A stretch of DNA of 64,000 nucleotides from an uncultured virus (IMG/VR IMGVR_UViG_3300029309_000017) (lineage: Duplodnaviria; Heunggongvirae; Uroviricota; Caudoviricetes; Crassvirales): the IMG/VR virus record IMGVR_UViG_3300029309_000017; one strand, written 5' to 3'. Below, in pieces: positions 7,558 to 50,821 of this stretch. Made by a program: the position numbers and the translations under genes. The notes beneath the pieces were generated by a model. The model was not told the origin of the DNA and searched no databases. It was given only the letters and a program-made list of their open reading frames with translations. Each line of letters opens with the position of its first letter. The first letter of the stretch is position 1.

Positions 7558-8793
7558 TTATCTAAATGTAAAGTTTATACCAAACGTTGTTATAAAAAAC
7601 TCTGAGTCCCACATTTTAGTATACTCGCCCTCAGCAAATACACCTATTGATTTACTAAGCTTCCACCCAATGTTTGCGCCGGCTTGATAATCCCACCATT
7701 GCTCTCCTTTTGCAGCATCAGCTAAACCATATTGGTCCCAGCTATTTCTATATAAGTATGATAACGGTATTCTACCTTTATCATCTTCATCACCCATAAC
7801 ATATTTGTGATGAGGTAAAAAAGCAGATCCATATAAATGAGCCCAGAACTTAGACTTATAGTGATACCAGTCAAAACCTACAACTGGACTTACTAAGCCA
7901 AAAGTTCCCGTGTTACCTAATACATCGTTATTATATCGAGATATTAATCTTTTGTATGGACCGTCTCTAAACTGAGGATCAGACGATGCTACTATTTGAC
8001 CTTCTGGATTCCACCAAAAATAACCACCAATACTTTCTTCTTCACCAGTTATAGGATTGTAAATATTAGTAGTATAATAAGCGTCTTGATACCCATATTC
8101 ATAAGCTAATTCATACCAGTAATTTTCTTGGTTACCGTTAGCATCTAAAGCACTAACCCATATCTCATAAGGATTAACACCATAAACTCTTTCATGTGTT
8201 CTAAAAGCTGCACCAGCAGATATGCTAAGTTTTTTACCAATAGGTAATCTAGCTCTAACATCTACAGCATTATAATTAAAATCAAAAGCACCTTGGTATC
8301 TTGATTCTAATTTAACAATATGATACTTACCAGTGTGTCTTAAAAAATATCTTTGATTATCCCATTCTTCACCTCTACGTCTTTCTTTTTCAAAATGAAA
8401 CAAATACTCCCAGCCTTTTACAGCTGACGTAGGCGCTATTAAAGCATTTTGTCTTTCTATGTTTTGGTCACCTGTCCAAAAATTACCTGGTTTTCTTTCG
8501 TAATCAAATCTACCCAATTTACGAATACCAAAACCTACTCTGTAGTCAGATGGAAAATACTCTGTAACATCAACAACTTCAGGAACATCATATAAACCAG
8601 CACCGTCTGGTTGTCTAATTAAGTATTTTTTATCGGATGACTCGTATGCAGCTCTGTAATCTCCAGCAGCATACACGGTAGCATACTTAAAAAAGTCTTC
8701 ATAAAACCCTTTAAAAAAGTTTTTCTTTTCTTTTTCTTGCGCGTTAATCGTAAATGTTAACATCGCTAAAATAATAACTAATATTTTTCTCAT
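7558..8793 (-). CDS. Putative outer-membrane beta-barrel protein
   Basis: Signal peptide; alternating aromatic beta strands; C-terminal FGINFTFR. Confidence 0.6.
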   Translation of the reverse strand: MRKILVIILAMLTFTINAQEKEKKNFFKGFYEDFFKYATVYAAGDYRAAYESSDKKYLIRQPDGAGLYDVPEVVDVTEYFPSDYRVGFGIRKLGRFDYERKPGNFWTGDQNIERQNALIAPTSAVKGWEYLFHFEKERRRGEEWDNQRYFLRHTGKYHIVKLESRYQGAFDFNYNAVDVRARLPIGKKLSISAGAAFRTHERVYGVNPYEIWVSALDANGNQENYWYELAYEYGYQDAYYTTNIYNPITGEEESIGGYFWWNPEGQIVASSDPQFRDGPYKRLISRYNNDVLGNTGTFGLVSPVVGFDWYHYKSKFWAHLYGSAFLPHHKYVMGDEDDKGRIPLSYLYRNSWDQYGLADAAKGEQWWDYQAGANIGWKLSKSIGVFAEGEYTKMWDSEFFITTFGINFTFR

Positions 8794-11700
8794 TATTGAT
8801 TTATTTTACCTTGTTGTTTTAGTTTTCTTATATTTTCCATGTAACTAACCAAAGCTATAGAGTCTGCTATTTCTTTGTTTCGTCTTCTTGTTTCAGCAGC
8901 TTTTTGACCGCGTTTCTTATTCTTTTGTTTTATAGAATCTTCATATCTTATTCTTTCATCATAAGACATATTGTCAAGTTTTTTCTGCTCTTTAATCTTG
9001 TTTTTTCTTCTAGTTTCTGCAGCTTTTTTTATACCTTCTTCTTTTCTCCTAGCTTTAGCTTCTATTTTTATTTGTTCGTGAGACTCGTTTTTAGCCGCGG
9101 CTAAATCCCATGTGTTCCAACCCATTGCAAAAGCTATTCTTTTCCAAGCAGCATTTCTATCATCAAAAGCCGCTTTTATGTTATTCATTTTATTAACTAA
9201 ACGATCTAAAGGTAAATTTGTAAAACCACTTACTAAGTTACCTATAACAGACCACTTGGGACTATCAAGATTATAACCTCTTTCTGCTATAACATCTTTT
9301 TCAAACCTATTAGTTTGTATTGCGCTATATATTTTTCTAGCTTTTGAACCAAGTGGCGGCGAAAGATTAAGTAATTCTATTATAGTATAGGTGTGATCAG
9401 CTAAAAATTCTTTTTCTTCTTGCTTACTATATTGTCTTAATCCGTTTTTTATTGCCGCAATTACAGCACCATATAAACCAGATCCTCTTAGCACGGTATC
9501 TAACATGCCATTTGCAACGTCTGCTTTGTTGTTTTTGTTTTGACATCTTTCTAGCGCTTTACCTTCTTTGCCTTCACACTTATAATCTTCTTCTTCAAAT
9601 GCTAATGCAAATAAAGCTTTTTGCATAGATGTAAATATAAGGTTTTGTATAAACGTATAATAAATTATTTTTGACGTATTTGTTTTCCAGTCACCTCTAC
9701 CGTTAACCAAATCTCTAGCTGCTTTTTTAGTTAATCTCATATACTGCATAGGTGTATTTTGAAAAGCTAATATAAACCTACCAAGTGGACCTGCTTGTTG
9801 TTGAGATATTAAAGAAGGATCAGATGATTGCTGAGCTTCTTCTGAGATCATAGAAAAATCTTCAAAAGCTTTTGCTTCAGCATCAGCTTTAGACATACCT
9901 TGTTTTAAATAGGTATTAACCCTGTTTCTGTACATTGTAGCACCACCAGCTGATATTGCGAAGCTATCTGCTATTTGAGTAGGTAGAAAACCTAATTTTA
10001 ATAAGTATTGAAATACTGCTCTAGCTTTGTTTTTAGCACCTCTAGCTGCGTTAGCAAGTTCAGCTTCGTTTACATTTGTTTTAAGTCCTCTTCTTCTTTC
10101 TCTTAACTTAGGCGAATTAAATATCATAGCAAAGTCAGCCCAATATTGTTTTTGATTTGCAAATGCCACAGCTGCTTTGAATGGATTATTGTCTGTCCAG
10201 TTTATAAAGTTAACAGTTGAAAGCGTTTGTAGTATTGCAGATCTCATATTAAAGAACATGATTGCACCAACAGAGTTATTTAACCAATTAGACCAAGTGT
10301 TAACTAGCCTGTTTTTGCCAAATGTTCTATTAGTACCATTGCTCATTCGATATAAAATATCTTCTAATGCTTCTCTAAAGTTTTCACCGTAAATAGCTTG
10401 TATTTTATTTAAGTTCTTTTGACTAAATATAACTTCAGCGTTTTCTAAAAACTCTTTTATAAACTCTTTTCTTTTAACATTTCTATTTATAGAATCTAAA
10501 TCACCAGCAATACTACTTGTTAACCAGTATTCGCCCGGCTCCATATAGCCTTGTTTTTGGTTTGTAATTAAACCTAGTGTGTCTGCAAATGTTTTTAGTT
10601 CTATATCACCATTAACAATACTGTTTAATTCTTTTAAATCAGCTTTAGATAAACCAGGAATATTATATCCAGATTTATTATATAAATAAACTCTTACAGC
10701 TTGATCGTATGTAAACTCTGTGCCAGGTATAGTTTTGTTTAATTTTTTTCTAACTTCAGGGAACTTTCTTCTTAAGTTTCTATATTGCGTTTGCATGGCT
10801 TGCTTTGCCACCTCATAAGCAGCGATACCTCTAGCATATGGTTTAGCTAAATTATCTTCTATCCACTTTTTTTGTTGCTCACCAAGCTTGCCTTTACCTA
10901 AGAAATCATACATAAGACCCATAAAGTCTTCTGCTGATGGTGGTAAAAAGAATCTAAACCTACCTTTACCAGCACCTCTTATTTTAGCTTTTGCTAAAGA
11001 AAAGTTTTTATTAGCTTCTACACCTGTTGTTTGCTCTAATATAAGATTAAAATCTTTATCTAATTGATTAGACTTTACAAAAGCTTGTTGAACTTTGCCT
11101 TTAACATCTAAAACATTTAAAGCGTCTTGCACTGCTTTTACGTTTTTATAAGCGTCATCAGCAAAATAAAAATCATTATAACCCTCAGCTGCTTTTGCAA
11201 CTATCCAATTTGCTTTTGCTTGAGGCGCACCATTTTCAAGACCTGTTATATTTTGTATTTTTAAATTAATACCTAAACCTTTTAAAAACTTTTGTATTGC
11301 TACAGCAGATGACTGAGGTCTAGCCGTAAGTATAAATACATTTTTATTACCAAATTTATCTACAGCTTTTCTTAATTTTTCAGTTAATGGGCCTGGCTTA
11401 CCGTTTACAACCTTGCTAAACTCAGAAAAATCAAACTTTGCTCCTGCAGCTTCTAACTCACTAGATCTTGCGGCAAACTCAGTAGCACTAAGTTTTCCTT
11501 TCTTGCCATCAGGCATCGTGTAAAGCACTTTAGATGATGATCTAGCAACCGTATCATCGAAATCAAACACAGAAATACCTTTTTTTTCTTTATTTCTAGT
11601 TAAAGCGTTGTCATATGCTTGAGCTTTATTTTGTTGATTTATATAATCATTTATATTTAAATCACTAGTTAATTCGGTTATAAAGTCTATAGCTAGTTTC

Positions 11701-14700
11701 TCTCTTTTTATAAACTCTATAGCTTGTATATTATCTATTGTTGTAAAAGTATTATACTTAGAAGCATCAATAGCTAATCCTCTAAAATCACCAGCTTTAG
11801 AAGTTGTACCCAAAGCATCATCTTGTAATGCTGAAAACAACTCAGCACCAAGAGTTTGATTATAATCTTTTAATACTTTGTCCATTTCTAAACTAGCAAA
11901 TGTTTTTATAGATTCTATTTGACCAGCAAAACTATTACTATTAGGATTTATACCAAGCTTATTTATTCTAGCGGCTGTAGTTAAAGATATTTTAGCCAAC
12001 TCAAGCATTACTTCAGAAGCTGGTGTAACGTGTTCACCTTTAAATCTTAAATGAACTTCTGGACTTGTTTTTGGATTTTTTAATCTTTGCTCTATAAAAT
12101 CTTCTAATGATGTTTCTTGTTTAAACTTAGCTGATTTGCCTTCATATATATTTGTAGATCTATTTACAGCAAACTGAACAGCTTCATCATAGAACACATG
12201 CGTTTCATCTTGTTTCATAGATCCATCTACATACTGTATAAGAGGTAATCTAGTTAATCCTCTTTGAGCTTTAGCGTTACTAGTAGATGATTCTAACCAT
12301 CTTAAAAACCCAGGTGTTAAATCAGGTCTTTTCGCTATAAGCATAGTCGCTTCGTTCATTATATATTTTAAAGCTTCTATGTTTGCAACTTCTGCTTTAG
12401 CTATTCTATCACCAAACTTTTCTTGTATTTGTTTTCTTTTTTGATCAGCGCTTATATCTTTTTTAAGTATAGTAGCTATACTTTTTAATATACCTGTACC
12501 AGCATTAAATATTTCTATATCGCTAGGATTAAAAGGTAATTTCACATTAGAAGCTTGTCCGGCTTTTCCTCTACGCTTTTTACTTAAATAATTATATTTA
12601 CCTGGTTTACCTGTTTTTATTTTTTTATCTGCGCCGTCTAAATAATTGTAGTTTATAGCAAACATATCGTCACCTAATACGGACACAAGCTCAGCTGGTA
12701 ACACATCTATTAAAGCTTCTGAAAAATCAGCAAGTTGTTTCATTGAAACATCTTTACTTTTAGCCGTTATAGTTGATCTATATGTATCTATGTATGGTTT
12801 AAATACAGGTGGTGTATCTGACCACTCTAGTAATGGTGCTTTAAAACCTGTTTTACCTTCATCAAAATAAGTATCTAAACCTATTTCATCAGCTAATAAT
12901 ATAACATCATTAGGTAGTTCAGCTTTATATCTTAAGTATACATCAGAGCTTCCACCGTTTTTAATAGCCACATCCATTAAATCAAATAACATAGCTTGTG
13001 TTTGTTCTGCTGATCTATTAGACTTAGCATTACCTCTTTTTATTTCTCTACTTATTTGTAAAATATCAAGTGAAGCATTTACTATATTATGCTTTTGTTG
13101 ATTTTTGGCTAATTCATTTTGCACTTCAACATCAGCTTCTATTAATTCTAGCCCCATTTCTTCTGCTAGATGTTTAGCTAATGATTCTTTTGCACCTCTT
13201 TTTAACTTTTTTAATACTGGTTTACCATTTATAATTTCAACCTCACCAAAGTTTGATAAAAAGTCTTGATCAGATATATCTGTTTTTCTTCTAGCTAATT
13301 CTATACCAGATGTTCTACCTGTTTCAGCACTTGATTCAAAATCTATTTTTTTACCTTTCCAGTCTGTAGTAAACTTACCATCAACACTTTTTTCTAAAGC
13401 GTTGGGTATTGCTGTGCCTAAATATGTTGTAGTTGCGTTTTCAACTATAGCTTTTTTATTTTTAACTAAAAAATTACTAAGCTTATTATTTTTCAAGCCA
13501 CCCATAGCTTGTTTTATTATAAGATCGTTTAGTTTACCTATATCTTTTTTAAACTCTCTTATCCAAGGTGGTATTGTAACGTTTTTACTTATTTTTTGAT
13601 TTAAAGAAGTTTTAAGTACTCTAACTACTTTAATTACATTGGTTTTAAGTTCTTTTAACGTTACACCAGAAAATAAATTACTATCTTTTAATTTTCTATA
13701 ATTTCTTGGTTTTATAGTTTGTTTTCTATTTTTTGATGTTGTATCAAAATCAACAGACTCTTTACCTAAGTTATAGCTATTTACAATGCCTTGTATTTTA
13801 TTATCAAGCTGACCGTTTATCCACCTGTTAAGTTCTATTTCACCACTATATCTTTCTACTATATCTACAATACCACCAACTTTAATTTCTCTACCAGACT
13901 TACCAGTTTTAGTAGTACCATAAGTTATATCTGCTAATATATTATCTTCAACTTCTTTAAAACCAGGTATGTTATTATATTTTCTTAATCTTTTCTTTAC
14001 CTCATTAGTGTATTCAAAACCTACTAATTGACCTAATCTAGTTTTTTGATCTTTAGTTATATTAGATATGTAATCAACTCTTTGCTCTGCATCCATACCT
14101 TCTATACCCATTATTGTTTCTGTAGAGCTATAAAGATCTTTCGAGCTTTTAGTTGTTGATTTAGTACCTGTTGGTTTAAATAAATCACTTATCTTATCAT
14201 ATAAAGAGTTTTTAGAATTAGCACTATGATTTTTAACTATGTTGAGTACTTCAGACTGTAAATATCTTATTTGATTTATTTGATCTGTAGAGTTATAAAG
14301 ATTTTTATTAGATTTAAAAACTAATCTTTTAATAACAGGTGTATAAAGATTTACAATAGCAGCACCATAACCTTTTTGCTTAGCGTTAAATATTTTTTCT
14401 GTAATTTGCTCTAGCTCAGACTTAGCGCCTATACCATCTACTAAACTACCTTTAAAACCTTTTTTAGCGCCTTTTAATAAACTACCTCTTAAACCACCAG
14501 TAGCCATTTGTTTATTATAGTCTTTTATAAAGTTGTAAACATCTCTACCAGTATCAAATCTAACGTTTTTTATACCAATGTTTTGAAACGCTTGTCTAAT
14601 TACGTCACCAAGTTTTGTAAATATGTTTTCATCAAAAGAAAAATAACCTTGAGTTAAGCCGTCAGAGAAAAAAGTTAACATTTCTTCTGCTCTTACACTA

Positions 14701-17700
14701 TTAGGATCTGATTCATATGCTCGTAAAGAAACATCTAAATAACTACTAGGCGTATAACCTTCTGCAATCATTGTGTCAACATATTGTCTCAAAGAACCAG
14801 CCATAGCTTCAGCAGCTTTAGGATTATTTCTTAATGTTTCATTTAAAGCACCGTGTAGCACTTCGTGTTGAGCAACTGTTACTGCGCCAGCGTCTTCACT
14901 TTTACTTTCATTTATTATTATTTCTTGAGTACCGTCTTTGTATTGTACTATAAAACCATTATCACCTACTCTTTTTACACTTACTTTTTCGTCTTGATCT
15001 TCTTTCTTTTTACCTTTATTTCTTTCAGGTAGCGCTGCGTTTAGCTCGTCTATTTTTTCTTGAACTTTTTGATCCGCACTTTTAGTTACATTACCATCGG
15101 CATCAACATCGTCTTCATATGTATTATAGTTTATTCCAAGCTTATCAGCTGTTTTTCTAGCAGCTTCACTTGTTCTTCTATTTATCTCTTCTAAATTAGT
15201 ATTTACAGCACCTGTAGATATTGCGTTATCTATTTCTTTTATTCTCTCGTTTATACCATTTAAATCATAAGATGTTTCAACATTAACAGTTGTTTCAACA
15301 CCATCTATCATTTCTGTTTGTGTAGTATTAACAGTTGTTGTGCTGCTACCATCTGCGCTAACTCTTTTCTTAGCATCTATTAAAGCTTGTTTTTCCATGT
15401 ACAAATCTATTTCTTGATCTGTAACAAACTCACCACCTAATGATATTGCATTTTTTATATTAGTACCATGTTTTAAAGCTGCTTTAGCTGCGTCTAAGTC
15501 AGCCTTCATTCTAGCCGCTAACTTTTGATTGCCAGCTTTAAGAGCTCTATTATAGAAGTTTTCGTAAAAAGCAACATTGTCTTTAAGCCCATCCATTATG
15601 CCGTCAACATCAGCACGCATGTTTCTATAAACTTGTTTCTTAGTATTTTTATATAGACCTGGAGTAGTAACAGCACTTGTACCACCTGACAATAATACGG
15701 TACCTAAAACAGTTTCAAACTGCGTTTGCATGTTTAAAAACCCAGTGTTGTTAGAATATCCTAACATAATTTTAGAGAAGTCTGTAAGTAATAATTCAGC
15801 TTCTTCTTCACCAATCTCACCTATTAAGTTACTAAAAAACTGGCCTGTAACTTTTTTCATAGCCTCTCTATTGGCTGCGTTTTTTAAATCACCCTTAAAT
15901 GTATCTAACATTATTTTACCAGCGCCAGTGTTGAAAAAATTTCTATCAGGCATTATACTTTGCACGACGGCTGTTGCCAATGAAGCAGAGTTAGCATATA
16001 TAAGTCTTTGACCTTCTGTCATACCCATGTTTACAGCTTCATTATAGTTTTCATGCACTGTACCTAAATAAGCTCTTTCAGCCATACGAATAGTATTGTT
16101 GGTTATACCACCCGTACTATATCTACCGCCTTTAAGTATTTCTCTACCGCCAACAGTTAGTTTTGGCAGTTTAACACCCCAGTCTAATTTACCGTTTTTA
16201 GCAAATACTTTATAGCTATCTTTTAGTTTAGATACATCACCTTTTTTAACAGCAGCTGCTATAGCAAGAGTAAACGGTAGCATATCACTAACCATTTTTG
16301 AAGAGTTTCTCCAATTTATATTAGAAAATTTTTCACCAATTGATTCACCTTCAAATTCAGATCCAAAGTCACTTATACCAAACGTATTTTCTTTATAGTC
16401 TTGTTCAAATCTTCTATCAAAAAAATCAAGCCTAGCTCTTTCGTCGTCTACATCCATTCCGAACAAACCTTCGCCAGTATATAAAAGCAATCTATTAGCC
16501 ATGATTCCAGTACCAACAAAATACTCACCACCAAAATCTCTTATACCTTGTGTGTTCCCTGCGAAAAAATCATAAAAACCAGCATACCAAACGTCATTTT
16601 TTAACGCACTATCTCTCCACTCTTCAAACTCTTTTGTTGTTTCAAAATTTGGATTATTAAAAGCTTTTGTAGCTACATTAAAATCTAATTGACTAGTAAG
16701 AAAAGCTGCTTTGTCTTGTAAGTCATCAAACAACGCCTCGTATTTATCTATATCAGATTGAGTAGGATTTTCAATAGCTTCAGCTTCTGCTTGTAGTTTA
16801 TCAGATTCAAACTCTAATTTTTCATATTCAGAATTTAAAACAGCTATTTTAGCGGTTGATAATATTTCTTCTTTTTCTTCTAGCGTTAATGTAGATCGAT
16901 CCATTCCAAATGTTGATCCTGGTGGTCCTAATGCTTTTTCTATTATCTTTCTATCTGACATGATAATTTTAATGACTTGGTTTCTAACTTTCTCAGCCAT
17001 TTTTTCGTCTTCAGCAAACTTTATTATTTCTTGCTCTTCATCCCCTTGATAACCACCTCTATAAAGATCAAAGCCCTCACTAAAATCATCATCTGTTTTA
17101 GTTATTTCTTTTAATGTTTCTTCTATTACTCTATAATTTCTAGTTTCATAACCTTTAACACCAGGTGCTACGTACTCTGTAACATCACTCATTCTTAATC
17201 TAAAATCATCGCTAACCTTAGTATCATTGGTTTTAAATATTCTATTATAAAGATCTGGGTTTTTTTCTCTTATATATTTACGAACTTTATTACCGCCTTC
17301 AAGAGTTTTTATAATATTCTCTACAGCATAAACATCGTTGTTTCTTAAGTCGTTTAATAATTTATCTATACTTTGAGAGTCTTCTGCAGCTAAATTAATT
17401 GCTCTATCACCTTCAAACTCTGCTTCACTATATAAAGAAGCTCTTTGATCTTCAAGAATATCTTCAAGTTCTTTTACTAAATCATAACTTTCTTCATAAG
17501 ATTCATCAACTTCAAAACGTTTTTTATTAAAATAATATTGCTCTGACTCTCTTATTTTTATAAGTTTATTAATTTCATCTGCTCTTGAAAAAGAAGCCAT
17601 ATCTAGCTCTTCATCATTTTCAGATTCTTCTTCATATTTTTCTTTTAAAAACTTATCAAAATTATCTATGTAACTACCATCTACACCAACACTGGTTCTA

Positions 17701-18395
17701 AAAGCAGGATCAGTAACGCTTTCATATTCTTGCCTAAGTTCTTTTTCTAAGTCCTCATAGCGTTTTTTACCATTAGGATCAAAACCAATAATCTCATCAA
17801 CTGTAGGCATTGCCTTACCAAACTTTTTGTAAAAACCTTCTTCAGTTAACTTTTTTTCAAACTCTTCCTGTTCAAAAAGATTCCTCTTCTCTTCCTCCAT
17901 TATAGTACCCTCTTCAAGCTTCATCTCATAATATCTTGATGGGTTTTGTTTTTCAGGTAACTTGTGAAGTATACGAGTTTTAGGATCATAAGCATGTGTT
18001 CCTGATTTTACAAGTCTGTTTATTGTTTTATTATACTGTGTATTATCAGACCAGTTATAGTTGTTACCTTCTAATAAAGATTTAGACACTATCCAACCAT
18101 TTTCATCAAGGTTTAAACCCATGTATTTATTATCTGTTAAATCAACATCAACAGTGCTAGAATCATAAGCATACCTAGTCGAGTTTGATCCCGAAGAACC
18201 ATCGACCGAATCGGAGACCGTATTCTCTTCCGACCCTACACTTGTCTCCGCATTTGCAGGGTCTGATTGGTTTCCCGCTATAACTTGCGCGGAAAATGAT
18301 TTAGCCCATGTATCTAAATCAAGACCCATTGACTCAGCAGCGTTTACTGCTTCTTCTTCAGTGTATATTTTTTTACCTACTTTATAATCTGGCAT
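8793..18395 (-). CDS. Giant (3200 aa) internal virion / DNA-ejection polyvalent protein
   Basis: Position after tail genes; HEVLH zincin motif; HAD-like FDFDDT...FADD domain; helical C-terminus. Confidence 0.7.
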   Translation of the reverse strand: MPDYKVGKKIYTEEEAVNAAESMGLDLDTWAKSFSAQVIAGNQSDPANAETSVGSEENTVSDSVDGSSGSNSTRYAYDSSTVDVDLTDNKYMGLNLDENGWIVSKSLLEGNNYNWSDNTQYNKTINRLVKSGTHAYDPKTRILHKLPEKQNPSRYYEMKLEEGTIMEEEKRNLFEQEEFEKKLTEEGFYKKFGKAMPTVDEIIGFDPNGKKRYEDLEKELRQEYESVTDPAFRTSVGVDGSYIDNFDKFLKEKYEEESENDEELDMASFSRADEINKLIKIRESEQYYFNKKRFEVDESYEESYDLVKELEDILEDQRASLYSEAEFEGDRAINLAAEDSQSIDKLLNDLRNNDVYAVENIIKTLEGGNKVRKYIREKNPDLYNRIFKTNDTKVSDDFRLRMSDVTEYVAPGVKGYETRNYRVIEETLKEITKTDDDFSEGFDLYRGGYQGDEEQEIIKFAEDEKMAEKVRNQVIKIIMSDRKIIEKALGPPGSTFGMDRSTLTLEEKEEILSTAKIAVLNSEYEKLEFESDKLQAEAEAIENPTQSDIDKYEALFDDLQDKAAFLTSQLDFNVATKAFNNPNFETTKEFEEWRDSALKNDVWYAGFYDFFAGNTQGIRDFGGEYFVGTGIMANRLLLYTGEGLFGMDVDDERARLDFFDRRFEQDYKENTFGISDFGSEFEGESIGEKFSNINWRNSSKMVSDMLPFTLAIAAAVKKGDVSKLKDSYKVFAKNGKLDWGVKLPKLTVGGREILKGGRYSTGGITNNTIRMAERAYLGTVHENYNEAVNMGMTEGQRLIYANSASLATAVVQSIMPDRNFFNTGAGKIMLDTFKGDLKNAANREAMKKVTGQFFSNLIGEIGEEEAELLLTDFSKIMLGYSNNTGFLNMQTQFETVLGTVLLSGGTSAVTTPGLYKNTKKQVYRNMRADVDGIMDGLKDNVAFYENFYNRALKAGNQKLAARMKADLDAAKAALKHGTNIKNAISLGGEFVTDQEIDLYMEKQALIDAKKRVSADGSSTTTVNTTQTEMIDGVETTVNVETSYDLNGINERIKEIDNAISTGAVNTNLEEINRRTSEAARKTADKLGINYNTYEDDVDADGNVTKSADQKVQEKIDELNAALPERNKGKKKEDQDEKVSVKRVGDNGFIVQYKDGTQEIIINESKSEDAGAVTVAQHEVLHGALNETLRNNPKAAEAMAGSLRQYVDTMIAEGYTPSSYLDVSLRAYESDPNSVRAEEMLTFFSDGLTQGYFSFDENIFTKLGDVIRQAFQNIGIKNVRFDTGRDVYNFIKDYNKQMATGGLRGSLLKGAKKGFKGSLVDGIGAKSELEQITEKIFNAKQKGYGAAIVNLYTPVIKRLVFKSNKNLYNSTDQINQIRYLQSEVLNIVKNHSANSKNSLYDKISDLFKPTGTKSTTKSSKDLYSSTETIMGIEGMDAEQRVDYISNITKDQKTRLGQLVGFEYTNEVKKRLRKYNNIPGFKEVEDNILADITYGTTKTGKSGREIKVGGIVDIVERYSGEIELNRWINGQLDNKIQGIVNSYNLGKESVDFDTTSKNRKQTIKPRNYRKLKDSNLFSGVTLKELKTNVIKVVRVLKTSLNQKISKNVTIPPWIREFKKDIGKLNDLIIKQAMGGLKNNKLSNFLVKNKKAIVENATTTYLGTAIPNALEKSVDGKFTTDWKGKKIDFESSAETGRTSGIELARRKTDISDQDFLSNFGEVEIINGKPVLKKLKRGAKESLAKHLAEEMGLELIEADVEVQNELAKNQQKHNIVNASLDILQISREIKRGNAKSNRSAEQTQAMLFDLMDVAIKNGGSSDVYLRYKAELPNDVILLADEIGLDTYFDEGKTGFKAPLLEWSDTPPVFKPYIDTYRSTITAKSKDVSMKQLADFSEALIDVLPAELVSVLGDDMFAINYNYLDGADKKIKTGKPGKYNYLSKKRRGKAGQASNVKLPFNPSDIEIFNAGTGILKSIATILKKDISADQKRKQIQEKFGDRIAKAEVANIEALKYIMNEATMLIAKRPDLTPGFLRWLESSTSNAKAQRGLTRLPLIQYVDGSMKQDETHVFYDEAVQFAVNRSTNIYEGKSAKFKQETSLEDFIEQRLKNPKTSPEVHLRFKGEHVTPASEVMLELAKISLTTAARINKLGINPNSNSFAGQIESIKTFASLEMDKVLKDYNQTLGAELFSALQDDALGTTSKAGDFRGLAIDASKYNTFTTIDNIQAIEFIKREKLAIDFITELTSDLNINDYINQQNKAQAYDNALTRNKEKKGISVFDFDDTVARSSSKVLYTMPDGKKGKLSATEFAARSSELEAAGAKFDFSEFSKVVNGKPGPLTEKLRKAVDKFGNKNVFILTARPQSSAVAIQKFLKGLGINLKIQNITGLENGAPQAKANWIVAKAAEGYNDFYFADDAYKNVKAVQDALNVLDVKGKVQQAFVKSNQLDKDFNLILEQTTGVEANKNFSLAKAKIRGAGKGRFRFFLPPSAEDFMGLMYDFLGKGKLGEQQKKWIEDNLAKPYARGIAAYEVAKQAMQTQYRNLRRKFPEVRKKLNKTIPGTEFTYDQAVRVYLYNKSGYNIPGLSKADLKELNSIVNGDIELKTFADTLGLITNQKQGYMEPGEYWLTSSIAGDLDSINRNVKRKEFIKEFLENAEVIFSQKNLNKIQAIYGENFREALEDILYRMSNGTNRTFGKNRLVNTWSNWLNNSVGAIMFFNMRSAILQTLSTVNFINWTDNNPFKAAVAFANQKQYWADFAMIFNSPKLRERRRGLKTNVNEAELANAARGAKNKARAVFQYLLKLGFLPTQIADSFAISAGGATMYRNRVNTYLKQGMSKADAEAKAFEDFSMISEEAQQSSDPSLISQQQAGPLGRFILAFQNTPMQYMRLTKKAARDLVNGRGDWKTNTSKIIYYTFIQNLIFTSMQKALFALAFEEEDYKCEGKEGKALERCQNKNNKADVANGMLDTVLRGSGLYGAVIAAIKNGLRQYSKQEEKEFLADHTYTIIELLNLSPPLGSKARKIYSAIQTNRFEKDVIAERGYNLDSPKWSVIGNLVSGFTNLPLDRLVNKMNNIKAAFDDRNAAWKRIAFAMGWNTWDLAAAKNESHEQIKIEAKARRKEEGIKKAAETRRKNKIKEQKKLDNMSYDERIRYEDSIKQKNKKRGQKAAETRRRNKEIADSIALVSYMENIRKLKQQGKINQ
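18212..18276 (-). other. Predicted -1 ribosomal frameshift signal (G GGA AAC plus H-type pseudoknot)
   Basis: In-frame heptamer, 6-nt spacer, stem 1 GACCCTGCA/TGTAGGGTC, stem 2 CGGAGAC/GTCTCCG. Confidence 0.7.
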
Positions 18396-22756: not shown

Positions 22757-25700
22757 TTAACAATTGTTTAATGAATTTGTATTTACTATTGATGTTATAA
22801 TTCCGTTTTCATAAACTATAAACTTATAACCATCAGGATGGTTTGCCCAGTGTGAATTTGATACTAGGTTAACAATAAATATATACCACTGCACGCCTCC
22901 TCCAGGAATAGAAGTATCATTAAATAGAAGCACACCATCATCATTAGCACCTAAAGCAGTACCATCTTCATTATAAAGTTGAGTTCCTACTTGTATACCG
23001 TCTGACGCAAAGTATTTAAAATTAGTTCCTATTTGGTTAATATTTGTAGTGCCATAACCTCCGTTGCTTATATTTATAAAGTTTATTATAGCACACTTGG
23101 CTAGTTGTGGTCTAATATTTTGAGAGTCGCTTGAAAAATTAGTCATAAAATCTATATTATCTGTACCGCTGCTGTTACACATACCTGTTGTTACTCTAAA
23201 TTCAGCGTCTGGTTCTGGCGGCGCGCTACAAGAAGCTAATGTATTGTATTGAACTTTTGAAGTTATTTGACCGTTTTGAACAGTTATAATATAGTAATTA
23301 TTAGGTACCGACGTTGATGTATCATTTATATTTAAAGCAGAGTTATCAGGATCAGCAATAGCATCATTACCTACATCTATATATAAATATTTACCATTCC
23401 ACACTGTATCTACAATATCATAAGGCTCGTTGTTTTCAAACAAAGTTGTTCCTGTATTTACACCAGCGCTTGCAAAATAACTAAAGTCTCTAGCAGTCTT
23501 GCTTATATTAGTTTCGCCAACAGCGTATTGACTATAAAAAGCTTCTATAGCACATTTTACATTTTGATCTGTAGTTTCTAATCTAATATCAGTGTTATTG
23601 CCTTTACCAGACCATAAATACCAAAACCTATTAAACACGTCAGGGGTTTGATTACCAACAGTCGAGCAAGTGTTATCAATACTTACTGTAATATTAAATG
23701 TTGTTGGGGTTCCACCGCTAATATTAGCAACGCCTATACCTTGTGTTGGAAAAGAAGACGAATCAACATTATTGTCACAGTTATCATTGTAGAAAGTTTT
23801 TAAACCTTTTATCTTGTTAAAATATTTATTTTCTTTTTTAACAAACTCTTTTATTTGGCCCTCTTCTATATCGGTATTTATCCAATTAGTATACCAACCA
23901 GGCGTACTTGTTTCTTCGCTTATTTGACTTGGTGGTATTCTTTCGTCTATTATTCTAGCTAAACTTAAACCAGTTCTTCCAGTTGTTGTGTTATATTTAT
24001 ATGCTCTTGAGGCTGTTCCTGTGTAGTTTAGTGTCTTAAAACCTTTAATAGATTCATTAACATCGTTTATAACTACATTTACAGAACAATCATATTGTTG
24101 ACCATAAAAATTACTATAAATATCATTAGAAGCATGTTCCCATATTAAACCTTTATTGAAAGTGTAATATTTGTCGTTTATTGAAACACCACTTTCTAAA
24201 GGATATACAACGCCTCGTGTTGTTGAATAATAAGATTTTCTACTTGGCCAACCATCTACAGTTTCTTTAAATGACACTGTAGTTGTTTTTATATTGTCTG
24301 ATACATCATCAGGCACCTTACAATTTGTTTTATCTCTAGGTGTTGCAGATAGTTTATTTTGCCATTCTTCTGTTAAGTTGTCTAATGTTATATTGTAAAC
24401 CTCTTTATCGTCATTATAACTACCTATAATTTTATTACAAACAGGTAGATTATCAGAAAAGAAATCACTCATACCTTTTAATGCTATTTGAGTAATACCA
24501 TCTTGTGATAACCTTATGACTGTTCCTCTATTTTTATCAGCAAAATAACTTCTAAAACCATAATCAGCAAATGACTCTGGATTAGTACTTATACCAAACT
24601 CACCAGCATAAGGAACTGCTTGACCTAGCACAGCTTTGTTAGATGTGACATTAACATTGCCGTCTGCGTTAAATAGAGCATCTTTATTAGCCAATATACT
24701 TAAACACTTATCTTCACACAAAGTTACTAGATTAGTGTTCTTAGAATGCAGCTTTTGAATACTACCATATTCTGGGTTTAAGTCTTTTGTAATAGGTTCT
24801 GCTTGTATAAACTGATTAGTTCTATTTATTCCAGTTAATGAATTATATATACCAGAAAAAATTAAACCACTACTTCTTCTTTCTTCAGCATAAGGTCCTT
24901 CAAATATACTAGACACTTTAACACCTTTACCTATTTTAGCAGCATTAAAATCATCTCTAATCCTGTCTGATTCTACTGCATTACCAAATGAATAAACATT
25001 AAAATAATCTAAAGCTTTAGCAGATGTACCATTTATTTCACTTATTGGGTATGCTTTACTTGCTTCATAATATATATCAATATCTACAGCTTCTTTAGGT
25101 TCTGTTTCAAATATAGCTGGATTTGTAGAAGACAATATAGTATTATTTTCTCTAGTTTCTTCTTCAAGCAAATTAAACCCACCAACGTTTGCTATTAATT
25201 CTGCTTTAGTAGTACCAACCCAATCTTCAGTTATATCTTTATCTAGTATTAAACATAAAGAAAAATGATAATTCATATCTTTATCTTTTTGATTACTACA
25301 ATCAGCAGTCATGTTTTCTATAGCACCTCTAAAAGTACCATTTCTATAAGCTCTTTTTATAGTATAAACTTGAGATTTTTTTCCTGCATGTGAACCTCTA
25401 CCAAAAATTTCAACAGCTCTACCCTCTTGAGCATCTGTCATTGGTTGACCAACATAACCATCTCTATCTCCAAACTCATCTTCACTCAAGCTTTTTCTAC
25501 CAACATAAACAATAGATAAAACGTTGTTGTTTTGTCTTGGAGGATCATATACCTCCCACATCTTTTGATCTGGTCCCGGATCACTATTAGCTGGGCTTCC
25601 ATTGTAACCACCATTACCTTTACCATTACCACCATAAGCGCCACAAAGTTTATACTTACCATCTTCATTACCACCGCAAAAATTTGGAGGCACTCCGTCA

Positions 25701-28444
25701 AAATCAGTTTCACCTTCATCTCTCCAATAAAAACCTCTTTTCCAACCATCTCCATTAGGATTACTAAAGTTTTGAAAACAATTACCAAGACAATTCGCGC
25801 AATTTCCAGAACTAATCACGTCTGAGTTTTCTTTAATAGAACCAACTATGGAATAAGTTTTTTCTAAAGCTGCAAATGATTTTTCTATATTTGTTTCAAA
25901 ATCTGTATCTCTGTTTATTTTAACAAAAAATCTACCTTCATACTCTGGTAATCTTTCTATTTTATTTTCTAGTATTTTTATAGTCACATTAGTGTCTATA
26001 GCTAAACCATTAATACCCATAAAACTAGCAGAACTATCCATACCTTTATCAAGGTTTACTAAATATTCGTCACCAGCACTAGAAACTGGTCCACCACTAT
26101 CTATACCAAAAAGATCTGTTTTTGCACCACCAACTGTAATTTCTATAAATCTATCACCTTTAAATCCATTTCTAAAATCAGGATTTTCACTTATAGCTGG
26201 ACCTTCAAATCTTATTTGTGAAAAATCTTCAGCAAAACCAGCTTTAACTTTACATTCAGCTATACCAATTGCTTTAGGTGTAGTTGCGACAAAATCTGGA
26301 ACTTTACTAGATATATCCAATATTTTATATCTACAAGGACCTATTGAAGGATTATCATTATCGTGTTGTTTTTTAAGTATTAGATATGTTTCTTCATCAA
26401 CTTTGTTTCTTTCAGATGATGGAAAACTTAGCCAAACATTACCATCTTCAGCTGGATAAAATCTATCAAGAGCTAAATTATAATACTCATTGCTAATATC
26501 TTTAATAAAATACTTAGCATGTGTAATTTCTTGTGGTAAATTAACTTGGTTTAATTTAGCTAAAAACTTATTTGTTCTTTGAGCATTTTCTTTACCTAAA
26601 TTATAAGTTGCACTTGGATTTGTAAAAACAGGTGTTTGTCTACCGTATATATCTTGAAAAACAATACCAAGTTGATAATTTCTTATAGTTTTTATAGAAG
26701 GAAAAGGTCTTCTAAAATCTTGATTAGCAGGTGTTATTTCATTGCCGTTAGCGTCTAAGCCAGGACCTTCACCAGGATGCTCAGAACTATCTACATCTAA
26801 CTCTATTATACATTTAGGTGTAGTTATGTTTTGTACATAATTTGCGTATATTAATCTATTAGCAGATATTTCTTGAGCTAAAGCTTTTTTAGGAACATTA
26901 TCAAATGGTCTAAGTATTTGATTAGACTCTACTGTTTGACCAATTAATTCTGTTTTTAATTCAAAAGAAGTTACGCTTTTATCTTTTATAGTATCTACTA
27001 CATATATATTATTTGATCTAGATTTTTTAAATAGAATATCTAACTCAATAACCTCTTGACTACCCCAATCCCAGTCTTTTATTATTAAAGATCTTATATG
27101 GTTTTGCATACCTAAGTTAAAACCGTCAGAAGATAAATACTCAAAATCATCGCCTTCAAAAACAACTTCTGTAAAAGGTGAAAAACAAGAGTATTCATTG
27201 TTTTCATATTTCCATCTATATGCAAATCTGGGAAACTCAAACTCAAACATGGGGTCTTTTTCTTCTAATAAAGCCTCCCAAACAATTAAACCAACCGGTG
27301 TTTGTATTGTGTTTATTACTTCAAATGGACCAAATCTTAATATTTTTTTTGGTATAGACTGTATTTTACCTACTATGTATTGACCATTAACAGAATCTAT
27401 TTTTATTCTTATTTGATATTCATTTGTATTATTGTCATCATCAATATTACCACCGTTTAAAACTATTATATCGTCTTGTTGCCAAGAGTTTTGAACAGAT
27501 TGATTAAAAGGTCCTATAGTAACAGTTTCCATATTAGCTGGAAATACAGGGTCTGTCCCTTGTTCTGCGGCTAACTCTTGATCAGCAAGCCACTCTCCAT
27601 ATGTTGGTAATGGTCTAAATTGAGCTGCTAAAAAAGTTGTTGATGGCTCGTTAACATATGTAAAATTATACCATAAAGGAGCTATTGGTTCGCCATCTAT
27701 ATTGTTTTCACTACCACCAGCGCCTAATGCACTACCGTCATAAGTTACAGTTACTGGCGTTACACCTGTACCAGGTAATTCTTGCCCAGCGGCAGATCTA
27801 GTGGATGTTGATATATCTATTTTAGGAGCATATAATGGTGATTTTTTAATAACAGTAATATCTGCTTCTGTAAAATCAGTGCCAGAAGAATTATATGTCC
27901 AATCCTGTGAAGAAGAATCAAAAGTAGGTATTTTAGTGTGTATGTTAAAAGAAGTTGAATTTGTACCTGCTTTAAATTTTTTTATATTTATTTTTTTAGG
28001 CTCTGTTTTATTGTCTGTAAAAAACAATAAATCATCAACTATGTTTATACCTGTTATGTGTTGATCTTTTGTAAAATTTAATATATTTTTTGTATCAATT
28101 AATATAGGTGATACAATTTTTGTTTTAGTATTATATTCTGCTATTGTACTAATACTATCACTAGCTATAAACCAATATATGCACTCAGTTGGCTCGTGTC
28201 TTATAGAACCTATACAAACAGGATTAGAATAACTACTTATATAATTGCTTGACCAGTTTTGATCAGGCGTATAGCCTTTTCTTTCTGTATTACCTTTTAG
28301 GTTTTGTAAAGCACCAACATTGCTGGACTCGGATGTAGCAACTGTTACGTTTAAAGCATCACGGTAACTTCCATTGGGAACCATTCTCTCGTCAAGATCA
28401 CCTTCCATCTTGCCGCGAGTAAAGTTATGAATAAATTCTGGCAT
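22757..28444 (-). CDS. Tail stabilisation / nozzle protein
   Basis: N-terminal F..G.M..DLDERMVPNG.YRDALN motif; beta-propeller-like; 1895 aa. Confidence 0.7.
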   Translation of the reverse strand: MPEFIHNFTRGKMEGDLDERMVPNGSYRDALNVTVATSESSNVGALQNLKGNTERKGYTPDQNWSSNYISSYSNPVCIGSIRHEPTECIYWFIASDSISTIAEYNTKTKIVSPILIDTKNILNFTKDQHITGINIVDDLLFFTDNKTEPKKINIKKFKAGTNSTSFNIHTKIPTFDSSSQDWTYNSSGTDFTEADITVIKKSPLYAPKIDISTSTRSAAGQELPGTGVTPVTVTYDGSALGAGGSENNIDGEPIAPLWYNFTYVNEPSTTFLAAQFRPLPTYGEWLADQELAAEQGTDPVFPANMETVTIGPFNQSVQNSWQQDDIIVLNGGNIDDDNNTNEYQIRIKIDSVNGQYIVGKIQSIPKKILRFGPFEVINTIQTPVGLIVWEALLEEKDPMFEFEFPRFAYRWKYENNEYSCFSPFTEVVFEGDDFEYLSSDGFNLGMQNHIRSLIIKDWDWGSQEVIELDILFKKSRSNNIYVVDTIKDKSVTSFELKTELIGQTVESNQILRPFDNVPKKALAQEISANRLIYANYVQNITTPKCIIELDVDSSEHPGEGPGLDANGNEITPANQDFRRPFPSIKTIRNYQLGIVFQDIYGRQTPVFTNPSATYNLGKENAQRTNKFLAKLNQVNLPQEITHAKYFIKDISNEYYNLALDRFYPAEDGNVWLSFPSSERNKVDEETYLILKKQHDNDNPSIGPCRYKILDISSKVPDFVATTPKAIGIAECKVKAGFAEDFSQIRFEGPAISENPDFRNGFKGDRFIEITVGGAKTDLFGIDSGGPVSSAGDEYLVNLDKGMDSSASFMGINGLAIDTNVTIKILENKIERLPEYEGRFFVKINRDTDFETNIEKSFAALEKTYSIVGSIKENSDVISSGNCANCLGNCFQNFSNPNGDGWKRGFYWRDEGETDFDGVPPNFCGGNEDGKYKLCGAYGGNGKGNGGYNGSPANSDPGPDQKMWEVYDPPRQNNNVLSIVYVGRKSLSEDEFGDRDGYVGQPMTDAQEGRAVEIFGRGSHAGKKSQVYTIKRAYRNGTFRGAIENMTADCSNQKDKDMNYHFSLCLILDKDITEDWVGTTKAELIANVGGFNLLEEETRENNTILSSTNPAIFETEPKEAVDIDIYYEASKAYPISEINGTSAKALDYFNVYSFGNAVESDRIRDDFNAAKIGKGVKVSSIFEGPYAEERRSSGLIFSGIYNSLTGINRTNQFIQAEPITKDLNPEYGSIQKLHSKNTNLVTLCEDKCLSILANKDALFNADGNVNVTSNKAVLGQAVPYAGEFGISTNPESFADYGFRSYFADKNRGTVIRLSQDGITQIALKGMSDFFSDNLPVCNKIIGSYNDDKEVYNITLDNLTEEWQNKLSATPRDKTNCKVPDDVSDNIKTTTVSFKETVDGWPSRKSYYSTTRGVVYPLESGVSINDKYYTFNKGLIWEHASNDIYSNFYGQQYDCSVNVVINDVNESIKGFKTLNYTGTASRAYKYNTTTGRTGLSLARIIDERIPPSQISEETSTPGWYTNWINTDIEEGQIKEFVKKENKYFNKIKGLKTFYNDNCDNNVDSSSFPTQGIGVANISGGTPTTFNITVSIDNTCSTVGNQTPDVFNRFWYLWSGKGNNTDIRLETTDQNVKCAIEAFYSQYAVGETNISKTARDFSYFASAGVNTGTTLFENNEPYDIVDTVWNGKYLYIDVGNDAIADPDNSALNINDTSTSVPNNYYIITVQNGQITSKVQYNTLASCSAPPEPDAEFRVTTGMCNSSGTDNIDFMTNFSSDSQNIRPQLAKCAIINFINISNGGYGTTNINQIGTNFKYFASDGIQVGTQLYNEDGTALGANDDGVLLFNDTSIPGGGVQWYIFIVNLVSNSHWANHPDGYKFIVYENGIITSIVNTNSLNNC

Positions 28445-38770: not shown

Positions 38771-39048
38771 TATTTAGATCTTCTTTCTGCAAAACCACTA
38801 AAAGCTTTTGTTTTTTCTTCTTTTTTAGGCTTGTTGTTTAATATATCCTCTTCCTCTTGTATTCTATTTAGTATTTCAAAAGCATCAAATATAGCTAGTT
38901 TTTTAGTTGCAGCAGCATTCTTAAGTCTATCAGCAGAAACATCATCTTCTGTATTAGTTATAATTTTTTCTTCAGCAACTTTTATTAACTCATCAACCGC
39001 CTTGTGCCCAGCTTGGATTATATTCTTTTTCGTTTCCTTGATATTCAT
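38770..39048 (-). CDS. Putative terminase small subunit
   Basis: Small helical protein immediately upstream of terL. Confidence 0.45.
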   Translation of the reverse strand: MNIKETKKNIIQAGHKAVDELIKVAEEKIITNTEDDVSADRLKNAAATKKLAIFDAFEILNRIQEEEDILNNKPKKEEKTKAFSGFAERRSK

Positions 39049-39583
39049 ATTTAATTGTAATTTTATTTGTAGGAACTCTATATAGCCTCTGACCGTCTAT
39101 TACAAACTCATATTCAGAACCTGGTGTAAATCCAACTAAGTCTCCTTTTTTTATAGAACCATCTGTATATTTTACTACACCTACCAAAGGTTTTTCTTTT
39201 TCAATACTGTATAAATCGTCATTTACTATTGGCTTTACAAAACTATAGCCTGGAAAAGCTTTCCACTCTTTGTTTTTTTTATAAGCATATATCTGATCTA
39301 AATAAACTAAGTATCTTTCTTCATCTAACCAGCTTCTACTATTTCGCTCTACATTTTTTACATCTCTCCACCTTCTAAATATATTGTGATGTATTATAAC
39401 CTCATCGCCTTTTTCAACTTCAAAACAACTCATTATAGGTGTTTCTAAAACTATAGCATTTCTACTTACGTTTTGATGATTAAATATTTCTGTATTCAGT
39501 ATTAATTCTTTATCACCTATTTTTTTAATATTGTTATATCTTTCTTTTTTAGGCGTTACTATAAAGTTAAATATACTTTTCAT
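38993..39583 (-). CDS. GroES-like domain protein (tandem)
   Basis: Two GroES-like segments (VEKGDEVIIHH; IKKGDLVGF...EFVIDGQRLY). Confidence 0.55.
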   Translation of the reverse strand: MKSIFNFIVTPKKERYNNIKKIGDKELILNTEIFNHQNVSRNAIVLETPIMSCFEVEKGDEVIIHHNIFRRWRDVKNVERNSRSWLDEERYLVYLDQIYAYKKNKEWKAFPGYSFVKPIVNDDLYSIEKEKPLVGVVKYTDGSIKKGDLVGFTPGSEYEFVIDGQRLYRVPTNKITIKYEYQGNEKEYNPSWAQGG

Positions 39584-50567: not shown

Positions 50568-50821
50568 TCAACAAGTACAACATCGCTAAACTGTATAACT
50601 GTGTAAACATTTTCTTTATACGATATACCATGACCAGCATGCTTATCATAGAATATAATATCACCAGTTTTAATACCTACAACTTTATCACCTGCAGATA
50701 TTACTTTAGCTTTTTTATATCTAACCTCTTTGTCTTTGGCTTCTGCTATTTCTAGCCCACCCATTTTTCGAGGTGCCTCTTTTATTTTTTCTATTATAAT
50801 GTAGTAATTAATTGCTTTCAT
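50564..50821 (-). CDS. groS: Co-chaperonin GroES
   Basis: AKVISAG...IKTGDIIFYDKHAG; adjacent to groL. Confidence 0.85.
   Translation of the reverse strand: MKAINYYIIIEKIKEAPRKMGGLEIAEAKDKEVRYKKAKVISAGDKVVGIKTGDIIFYDKHAGHGISYKENVYTVIQFSDVVLVE

Follow-up and report, generated by a model that had tools for sequence, protein, structure and literature searches.

The 64,000-nucleotide (nt) stretch of an uncultured virus analysed here (IMG/VR record IMGVR_UViG_3300029309_000017; this whole stretch is called the window) carries on its minus strand a giant open reading frame (ORF) of 3200 amino acids (aa; 8793..18395), listed within the virion gene block. Comparison with homologous sequences suggests that this gene probably contains, 42 codons after its start, a real -1 ribosomal frameshift site from which a functional transframe protein is made.

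According to the mechanism we propose, a ribosome translating the giant gene would arrive at the site with GGA in its P site and AAC in its A site, and would meet a stem-loop, possibly part of an H-type pseudoknot, 6 nt downstream. A fraction of the ribosomes would re-pair both tRNAs one base back (on GGG and AAA), go on in the -1 frame and terminate 31-41 codons later, while unslipped ribosomes would make the 3200-aa protein. The shifted product of 73-83 aa would consist of a 42-residue N-terminal domain, a basic segment bearing Cys residues and a short aromatic/hydrophobic tail. We infer that this small protein may act with the giant protein via the common N-terminal domain, the ratio of the two being set by frameshift efficiency.

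The probable frameshift site and its conservation

The slippery heptamer G_GGA_AAC (18270..18276, minus strand, as are all features of the cassette) lies in the X_XXY_YYZ phase within codons 40-42 (GCG GGA AAC). It is followed by a 6-nt spacer, CAATCA (18264..18269; CAATTA in some relatives), and by a stem-loop (18232..18263) with a 14-nt loop and a stem of 9 base pairs (bp), here called stem 1, in which GACCCTGCA (18263-18255) pairs with TGTAGGGTC (18240-18232), one of the pairs being G-U. The loop segment CGGAGAC (18244..18250) is exactly complementary to GTCTCCG (18212..18218), which begins 13 nt past stem 1; the two are the proposed 5' and 3' arms of a second stem, stem 2. After the slip, the -1 ORF (18175..18270) comprises 31 codons and a TAG stop at 18177-18175, and the predicted transframe protein in the window thus measures 42+31 = 73 aa. 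These elements had been put forward in an earlier reading of the letters (the sequence-only reading), whose coordinates for heptamer, phase, spacer, stem, loop complement and -1 stop all agree with the sequence, as do the length of the product and the 31 residues quoted for its shifted part. The GC-rich patch described there is likewise found, the guanine-cytosine (GC) content being 0.48-0.51 across 18150-18299 and about 0.22-0.35 on either side. The arrangement was said to be canonical for programmed -1 frameshifting, and an in-phase heptamer, a 6-nt spacer, a stable stem and a conserved -1 ORF are all present. The three comparisons with homologues that this reading had offered as possible refutations, namely of the heptamer, of the stem pairing and of the -1 ORF, all came out in favour of its frameshift interpretation, which is thereby supported at the level of sequence.

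Homologous loci were retrieved with peptide patterns from codons 1-16, i.e. from outside the cassette, so that retrieval is independent of it. This confirmed 7 of 447 pattern-matching stretches in viral contigs and 19 of 597 in metagenome contigs; together with locus L001 and the window, the dataset comprises 28 sequences with 19 distinct 5' ends. The full-length giant homologues measure 2965-3206 aa. All 19 distinct 5' ends carry an unchanged, in-phase GGGAAAC at ORF nt 120-126, i.e. at one and the same codon, and the codon before it is GCG in every one of them. GCG and GGA are rare in the giant gene, where they account for 16 of the 259 codons for Ala and 23 of the 215 for Gly, respectively, and the probability of GCG GGA AAC given Ala-Gly-Asn is 0.0025 under the gene's own codon usage. 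Within the clade that includes the window (the window clade), a block of 97 nt (18284-18188) is unchanged while its flanks vary; a further DNA contig (run X8) has 44 differences over 714 nt, and among those listed none falls in 18191-18287. In the 0 frame, the peptide AGNQSDPA is kept in 8 of 8 database proteins with an MPDY N-terminus (P0001-3, P0006-8, P0012, P0013), and some loci carry Leu instead of Ser. A second protein search, aimed at short fragments, added two more proteins, both of which match known variants.

The DNA pattern of the cassette returned, among viral contigs, only the same 7 contigs already found by protein; within that set, the cassette is therefore found in no other gene context. 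Three matches to the pattern in 596 Gb of prokaryote genomes (Pontibacter, a Ruminococcus metagenome-assembled genome and a Nitrospira metagenome-assembled genome) were rejected, their context being unrelated; about two matches are expected by chance according to our own estimate.

Taken by itself, the heptamer is unremarkable in this AT-rich giant gene and means little, because the gene holds 44 in-phase X_XXY_YYZ heptamers. The -1 ORF that starts from the site at 18276 is the longest among these (33 codons counting the two slip codons, against at most 23 for the other 43 sites), the mean -1 open run across the giant gene being 5.1 codons. The 60 nt past the heptamer fold at -19.5 kcal/mol, while the other heptamer sites reach -13.9 kcal/mol or weaker, and this fold ranks 7th among 3181 windows of the giant gene. 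For a fold of 116 nt the z-score is -2.26, equally good shuffles being found in 3 of 200. The longest -1 open run anywhere in the giant gene is a separate one near its 3' end (9558-9429, minus strand; 43 codons, GC content 0.38), which encodes a basic peptide with several Cys; an in-phase AAAAAAC lies inside it at 9450, followed by just 7 open -1 codons.

The -1 reading frame

In 19 of the 19 distinct 5' ends the -1 frame is open for 31-41 codons past the Asn codon and then meets a stop; in 11 of 19, by contrast, the +1 frame is interrupted by a stop among its first 13 codons. A null model was used in which the 0-frame peptide does not change and synonymous codons are drawn anew according to the usage of the same gene beyond the region. 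For each of the 12 sequences tested out of 19, 0-4 of 20,000 trials left the -1 frame without a stop, i.e. the chance of -1 openness given protein and codon usage is at most 2e-4. With the third-base composition of the region itself as null, the corresponding values are 0.00015-0.053. The open -1 frame is not forced by the 0-frame protein.

The -1 frame is rarely open under the first null model because the linker encoded in the 0 frame is rich in codons starting with AA, GA or AG, and a T-ending codon before any of these creates a -1 stop. Rare G-ending codons ahead of such codons therefore avoid -1 stops. The overlap region shows a preference for rare G- and C-ending codons, in a gene whose third positions are G in 9%, C in 8%, A in 42% and T in 40% of codons. 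Four of the gene's 7 TCG codons are located within codons 54-71, and 3 of its 16 GCG codons within codons 35-48.

Independent access to the -1 frame appears limited. In 15 of 19 5' ends, the stretch from the nearest -1 stop on the upstream side to the heptamer holds no ATG, GTG or TTG, and in 12 of 19 this stop is just 3-8 codons away from the heptamer. The -1 peptides that we read contain no Met and no residue encoded by GTG or TTG. Judged from these sequences, no way into the -1 ORF is evident other than a frameshift at the heptamer.

Conservation of the -1 peptide and of synonymous sites

The consensus of the -1 peptide is PIR[SP]C.. C...C.VG....L...G..W..FF.G. In the larger of the two clades it reads PIR[SP]C(x)KCGG[EG]C[RG]VG[KE]QSSL..RRIG[FWI][VI]W[KR]S[FI]F[FI]G.., and in the window clade PIRPCKCGDKCRVGREYGLRFGRWFFGI... 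Three Cys are present in 18 of 19 peptides, the remaining one (L021) having two; the net charge is +5 to +7, and the tail is aromatic/hydrophobic.

Substitutions past stem 1 were scored with BLOSUM62 over mismatches, each frame being aligned on its own translation, for all 19 sequences, a thinned set of 8 and the 7 of the larger clade. The mean mismatch scores for these three sets are -0.18, +0.23 and +0.60 in the -1 frame, -0.63, -0.69 and -0.90 in the 0 frame, and -1.09, -1.15 and -1.34 in the +1 frame. A separate comparison points in the same direction, with -1 substitutions past stem 1 being more conservative than those in the 0 frame. Identity is alike in both coding frames (0.659 vs 0.675), as expected when both frames are coding. 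From the heptamer up to the end of stem 1, on the other hand, the 0 frame is the more conservative one (-0.22 vs -0.88).

Pairwise ratios of observed to expected synonymous changes are 0.21-0.53 over columns 36-85 and about 1 elsewhere, the former values being inflated by pairs that are not independent. Because of this non-independence, two stricter synonymous tests were used. The minimum number of synonymous changes per column is 1.05 over codons 1-39, 0.30 over codons 40-62, 0.78 over codons 63-85 and 1.01 over codons 86-500; synonymous change is hence down about 3.4-fold over codons 40-62. The codon block 40-85 is the 5th lowest of 454 sliding blocks in synonymous changes. On the basis of these alignments, synonymous suppression is genuine across the signal and modest across the tail. 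The conservation of the -1 peptide favours a functional product over mere throttling of the giant protein, the two roles between which the sequence-only reading had not chosen.

RNA structure downstream of the heptamer

The spacer measures 6 nt in 7 of 7 representatives, and its alignment columns are free of gaps. Stem 1 can form in all 19 distinct 5' ends, with 8-9 bp; in an alignment of 15 distinct rows, eight of its pairs are paired in 100% of cells, and the ninth pair is kept in 18 of 19 5' ends. Three of the pairs vary; each time a single side is altered, and the new pair is compatible with wobble pairing. With RNAalifold, stem 1 is recovered together with two flanking pairs, of which one survives the C-to-T change that gives Ser-to-Leu. 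The stem 1 hairpin has an energy of -11.0 to -13.5 kcal/mol in the 7 representatives. By comparison of these sequences, the stem 1 hairpin is solid.

The H-type pseudoknot claimed in the sequence-only reading fares less evenly: its hairpin and, in the window clade, its stem 2 with 7 of 7 positions complementary (7 bp) are found as described, but elsewhere stem 2 is only partly conserved. The other clade has GAGGC/GCCTC, i.e. 5 bp. There is one compensatory change in stem 2, from A-U to G-C, seen in 2 distinct rows, and the sixth pair is open in 11 of 15 rows. The best duplex between the loop and the downstream sequence starts 13 nt past stem 1 in 7 of 7 representatives. In the window it has -13.4 kcal/mol, a value that 11 of 2000 shuffled versions of the 35 nt downstream also reach; outside the window clade, 86 of 2000 and 183 of 2000 shuffles match the stem 2 duplex, and in L021 the duplex has just -6.4 kcal/mol. 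On these alignments, an H-type pseudoknot is plausible, its second stem being partly supported.

A weak terminator-like hairpin, with a 5-bp stem followed by a T-rich run, is located at 18220-18203 (minus strand) in the window clade only. It overlaps the 3' arm of stem 2 and could compete with formation of the pseudoknot. A promoter and terminator scan gave nothing relevant apart from this hairpin.

The two predicted products

Codons 1-42 (18270..18395) encode the N-terminal domain common to the giant protein and the predicted transframe protein. An AlphaFold2 model based on 17 sequences gives residues 1-42 a mean predicted local distance difference test (pLDDT) score of 88.4 and a strand-strand-helix-helix-strand arrangement. 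A model of 200 aa gives scores of 81-85 for residues 1-40 and of less than 50 for residues 43-118. Because residues 1-42 are modelled confidently and residues 43-118 fall below 50, the slip site is placed exactly at the boundary between domain and linker. The overlap lies in an acidic linker of the giant protein that is, by this prediction, probably disordered.

No fold match was found for the N-terminal domain (best VIA Z 3.0, best Foldseek E 1.3), and a fold search with the 200-aa model was discarded, its results being swamped by a long helix at residues 151-199. For the -1 peptide, NCBIfam holds no relatives, the best score in the ESM Atlas is 0.86 and is a lead only, and a profile search against 1.84 billion representatives gave 2 matches, both of them to repeat proteins and spurious. 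The giant protein has no match in Pfam, NCBIfam or the sequences of the PDB, and one weak match among the PHROG families, namely to phrog_415 (polynucleotide kinase; residues 2258-2432, E 1.9e-4). This region, polynucleotide-kinase/HAD-like, includes a DFDDT motif, and an HExxH-like motif, HEVLHG, is located at about residue 1230; no other recognizable domain was found in the giant protein.

The giant proteins of the window clade and of the larger clade cannot be aligned past about residue 75. An N-terminal module of about 75-85 residues is thus common to giants that are unalignable just downstream, and it is entirely missing from the giant homologues P0004 and P0005. These sequence comparisons suggest modular exchange of the 5' end of the giant gene, because the module sits on unalignable giants and is absent from those two. 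Going further, we consider tentatively, and with more doubt than confidence, that the N-terminal domain and the cassette may form a self-contained module that fixes the ratio of a huge virion protein to a small, basic partner with a hydrophobic tail. Such a partner could help to dock, chaperone or release the giant protein.

Counter-evidence and alternative explanations

Several points weigh against a frameshift with a functional product. All of the support comes from sequence comparison, from which slippage itself is inferred, and all 19 distinct 5' ends belong to one marine phage group with perhaps 6-8 independent lineages. Under the strictest null for openness, in which the region's own synonymous codons are permuted, 0.8-17% of the trials with a given sequence leave the -1 frame without a stop. 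No double compensatory change is seen in stem 1, whose arms are in addition constrained by two reading frames. Stem 2 is down to 3 bp in L021, following a 3-nt deletion, and it is in this lineage with the shrunken stem 2 that the third Cys of the -1 peptide is missing. In six independent close pairs, 11 of 236 synonymous differences lie inside vs 165 of 2027 outside (odds ratio 0.55, p = 0.07); the pair L014/L021 shows the opposite synonymous trend, and three deep contrasts between the clades are not significant. Finally, according to PMC4066793, re-pairing from AAC to AAA is poorly tolerated by the ribosomes of E. coli, and shifting at a high level requires an A-site codon made of purines or of pyrimidines throughout. 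Because of this poor tolerance in E. coli, efficiency in the bacterial host may be low or modest. Alternatively, the slippage rules of the host may differ from those of E. coli.

Among the alternatives, a frameshift that is real and only attenuates survives best and is still unlikely. It would shed ribosomes from a costly 9.6-kb ORF needed in few copies, leaving the -1 peptide as a functionless by-product. The position of the site at codon 42 agrees with an early abort of shifted ribosomes; the giant gene begins 13 nt past the stop of the gene before it, within a dense virion block, and synonymous suppression is strongest over the signal (0.30 over codons 40-62) and mild over the tail (0.78). 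For attenuation, however, a nearby -1 stop would suffice, yet in each of the 19 5' ends the frame runs on for 31-41 codons before a stop, against the strong odds set by codon usage. The -1 peptide moreover evolves more conservatively than the 0 frame past stem 1 and keeps three Cys in 18 of 19 cases.

We give slightly less credit to a conserved RNA or nucleotide element that acts without frameshifting (e.g. in pausing, or in mRNA stability or processing), with the open -1 frame as a side effect of GC content. The invariable pairing of stem 1, the local GC content of 0.48-0.51 and the persistence of an open -1 frame in as many as 17% of trials for a single sequence, when the region's codons are permuted, all fit this explanation. 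It leaves unexplained, however, the invariant in-phase heptamer of rare codons exactly 6 nt upstream (P = 0.0025), as well as the -1 openness well past the structure and the conservative -1 substitutions in the tail. Rfam gave a single match, whose 18.7 bits fall short of the gathering score of 35 (E 0.33), and the sequence has no T-rich terminator tail after stem 1.

Conservation at the level of the protein, by which AGNQSDPA and the acidic linker serve the giant protein (e.g. as a cleavage or docking site) while heptamer and -1 ORF are coincidental, appears very improbable. In its favour, AGNQSDPA is invariant in the 8 MPDY-type database proteins, and the 0 frame is the more conservative one up to the end of stem 1. 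Third positions are not fixed by the residues, though, and the rare codons GCG, GGA, AAC, GGG and TCG are kept in all lineages. The Ser-to-Leu change in the spacer shows that this residue is not strictly needed, while the underlying C-to-T change keeps the possible flanking pair; in addition, the -1 openness has a P of at most 2e-4 given the protein sequence.

Expression of the -1 ORF by its own initiation or by transcriptional slippage can practically be dismissed: an ATG or TTG lies upstream of the heptamer in the -1 frame in 4 of 19 5' ends, but there is no start in 15 of 19 and a -1 stop 3-8 codons upstream in 12 of 19, the G3A3 run is much shorter than the homopolymer runs known to support slippage of RNA polymerase, and an RNA-library contig over 18209-18359 has no indel, which is weak evidence as contigs hide minority forms, the RNA-library contigs (X19, X20) speaking neither for nor against transcription.

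Phage and gene context

Scans of the window with PHROG profiles identify the large terminase subunit (36557-38770), the portal (34129-36555) and several families of virion structural proteins, as well as ribonucleotide reductase, ligase and exonuclease. The portal is P22-like, which makes the window a relative of podoviruses. In tblastn, its top matches come from an uncultured podovirus (MW202828.1, 53.7%), from Maribacter phage Panino (46.0%) and from the Flavobacterium 'elemo' phages (42.8%). The 87 portal-matching records comprise 68 from Flavobacterium, 15 from Cellulophaga, 2 from Tenacibaculum, 1 from Maribacter and 1 uncultured. A stretch identical to 100% is present on a marine metagenome scaffold. 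The portal matches and this identical scaffold therefore point to a marine phage of podovirus type, and the host is, by these matches, probably a member of the Flavobacteriia.

Among 50,697 phage records there was no match, neither by blastn with the 5' region nor by tblastn with the N-terminal 100 aa and the C-terminal 1200 aa. The freshwater podovirus MW202828.1 has a syntenic giant gene of 3859 aa with another N-terminus and no in-phase GGGAAAC near its start; the cassette is absent from it. At the 5' end of this gene (L028 36920-37519), two tandem helical repeats of about 30 residues (..A..TAHSLFE..GYTKG.DAF.ELV) are located; its GenBank name, 'reticulocyte binding/rhoptry protein', looks spurious.

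The sequence-only reading had spoken of an ejection gene and of an N-terminal targeting sequence, both of them putative labels. The giant gene lies in the virion block, and 'ejection protein' is a plausible candidate label for it; the giant protein matched none of the known families, PDB chains or phage records searched. A second very large virion gene is located upstream in the same block (22757-28444, minus strand; 1895 aa), and matches phrog_14478, 'virion structural protein' (E 9e-119). The window also encodes a GroEL-like chaperonin (50808-52388, minus strand; phrog_5725, E 8e-130), and the gene at 38993-39583 (minus strand) matches the PHROG 'co-chaperonin GroES' (E 1.6e-16). MW202828.1 likewise has groEL and a 10-kDa chaperonin.

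Relation to known frameshift systems

G_GGA_AAC is listed, in PMC5009743, among the most shift-prone heptamers on mammalian ribosomes and as the shift site of g-t in the haloarchaeal virus HCTV-1; the same source describes G_GGA_AAG as highly shift-prone in E. coli. With lambda G/GT (G_GGA_AAG) and its relatives and with HCTV-1 g-t, whose heptamers are given there (PMC5009743), the site in the window would share a -1 tandem slippage on G_GGA_AAN in a structural gene of a double-stranded DNA virus. It would also share with them the production of two proteins with a common N-terminus, in a ratio set by slippage. Unlike in lambda G/GT, the site is located 42 codons into an ORF of 3200 codons in a structural block of podovirus type, the predicted shifted product is the shorter one and not a C-terminal extension, and the A-site codon is AAC, not AAG. 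No match to G or GT turned up in the Pfam, PHROG and NCBIfam scans, which were the only comparison made. Tail assembly chaperones are encoded by two small overlapping ORFs upstream of the tape-measure gene, with a longer fusion product; this is not the arrangement found here, and none of the ORFs scanned was identified as a tape-measure gene.

In the E. coli gene dnaX (tau/gamma), -1 slippage takes place on A_AAA_AAG, helped by a Shine-Dalgarno-like stimulator upstream and by a hairpin located about 6 nt downstream, and the shifted ribosomes stop almost at once. The cassette resembles it in the position of the hairpin and in a predicted truncated product that has the N-terminus of the full-length protein. 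Unlike dnaX, it has G_GGA_AAC, and a conserved -1 ORF of 31-41 codons would be translated. No Shine-Dalgarno-like element was noted on reading the upstream sequence, for which no dedicated search was run. In its proposed working, the cassette is like lambda G/GT and dnaX but belongs to neither.

Transframe proteins made by -1 frameshifting inside a long ORF are also found in RNA viruses, namely TF of alphaviruses, 2B* of cardioviruses and nsp2TF of arteriviruses. Hidden overlapping ORFs in RNA viruses were first noticed by reduced synonymous variation. Luteoviruses use a frameshift signal that consists of G_GGA_AAC and an H-type pseudoknot. The signal described here is similar to these in its heptamer of 'eukaryotic' type, a spacer within the range of 5-7 nt, a compact stem or pseudoknot and a short ORF inside a long one. 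Unlike the cases from RNA viruses, it is located in a double-stranded DNA phage that depends on bacterial ribosomes, likely of a host in the Flavobacteriia, and the overlap is at the extreme 5' end of the gene for a virion protein.

Tail assembly chaperones account for 2397 of 2476 joined genes in SEA-PHAGES, and annotated phage frameshifts are hence almost all of this kind, according to PMC10885494. In the portions of open-access papers and preprints that our literature search covered, no report describes ribosomal frameshifting in phages of flavobacteria or in podovirus genes for ejection or internal virion proteins. If the site works, it would add a hidden gene that escapes annotation to a group of marine phages that are abundant, and it would represent a 5'-proximal frameshift with a short product in a double-stranded DNA phage.

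Translation of the Bacteroidota type largely does without Shine-Dalgarno pairing. A working site would offer a natural test of whether such translation slips efficiently on a heptamer that is considered eukaryote-like. If the cassette and the N-terminal domain do form a ratio-fixing module, the logic of G/GT would appear inverted in a context without tail chaperones, and the ribosomes of the probable Bacteroidota host would accept a slip on AAC in the A site, with which E. coli copes poorly; this may indicate different slippage rules in Bacteroidota. The site may also provide a handle on how a protein of 3200 residues is dosed or handled during virion assembly.

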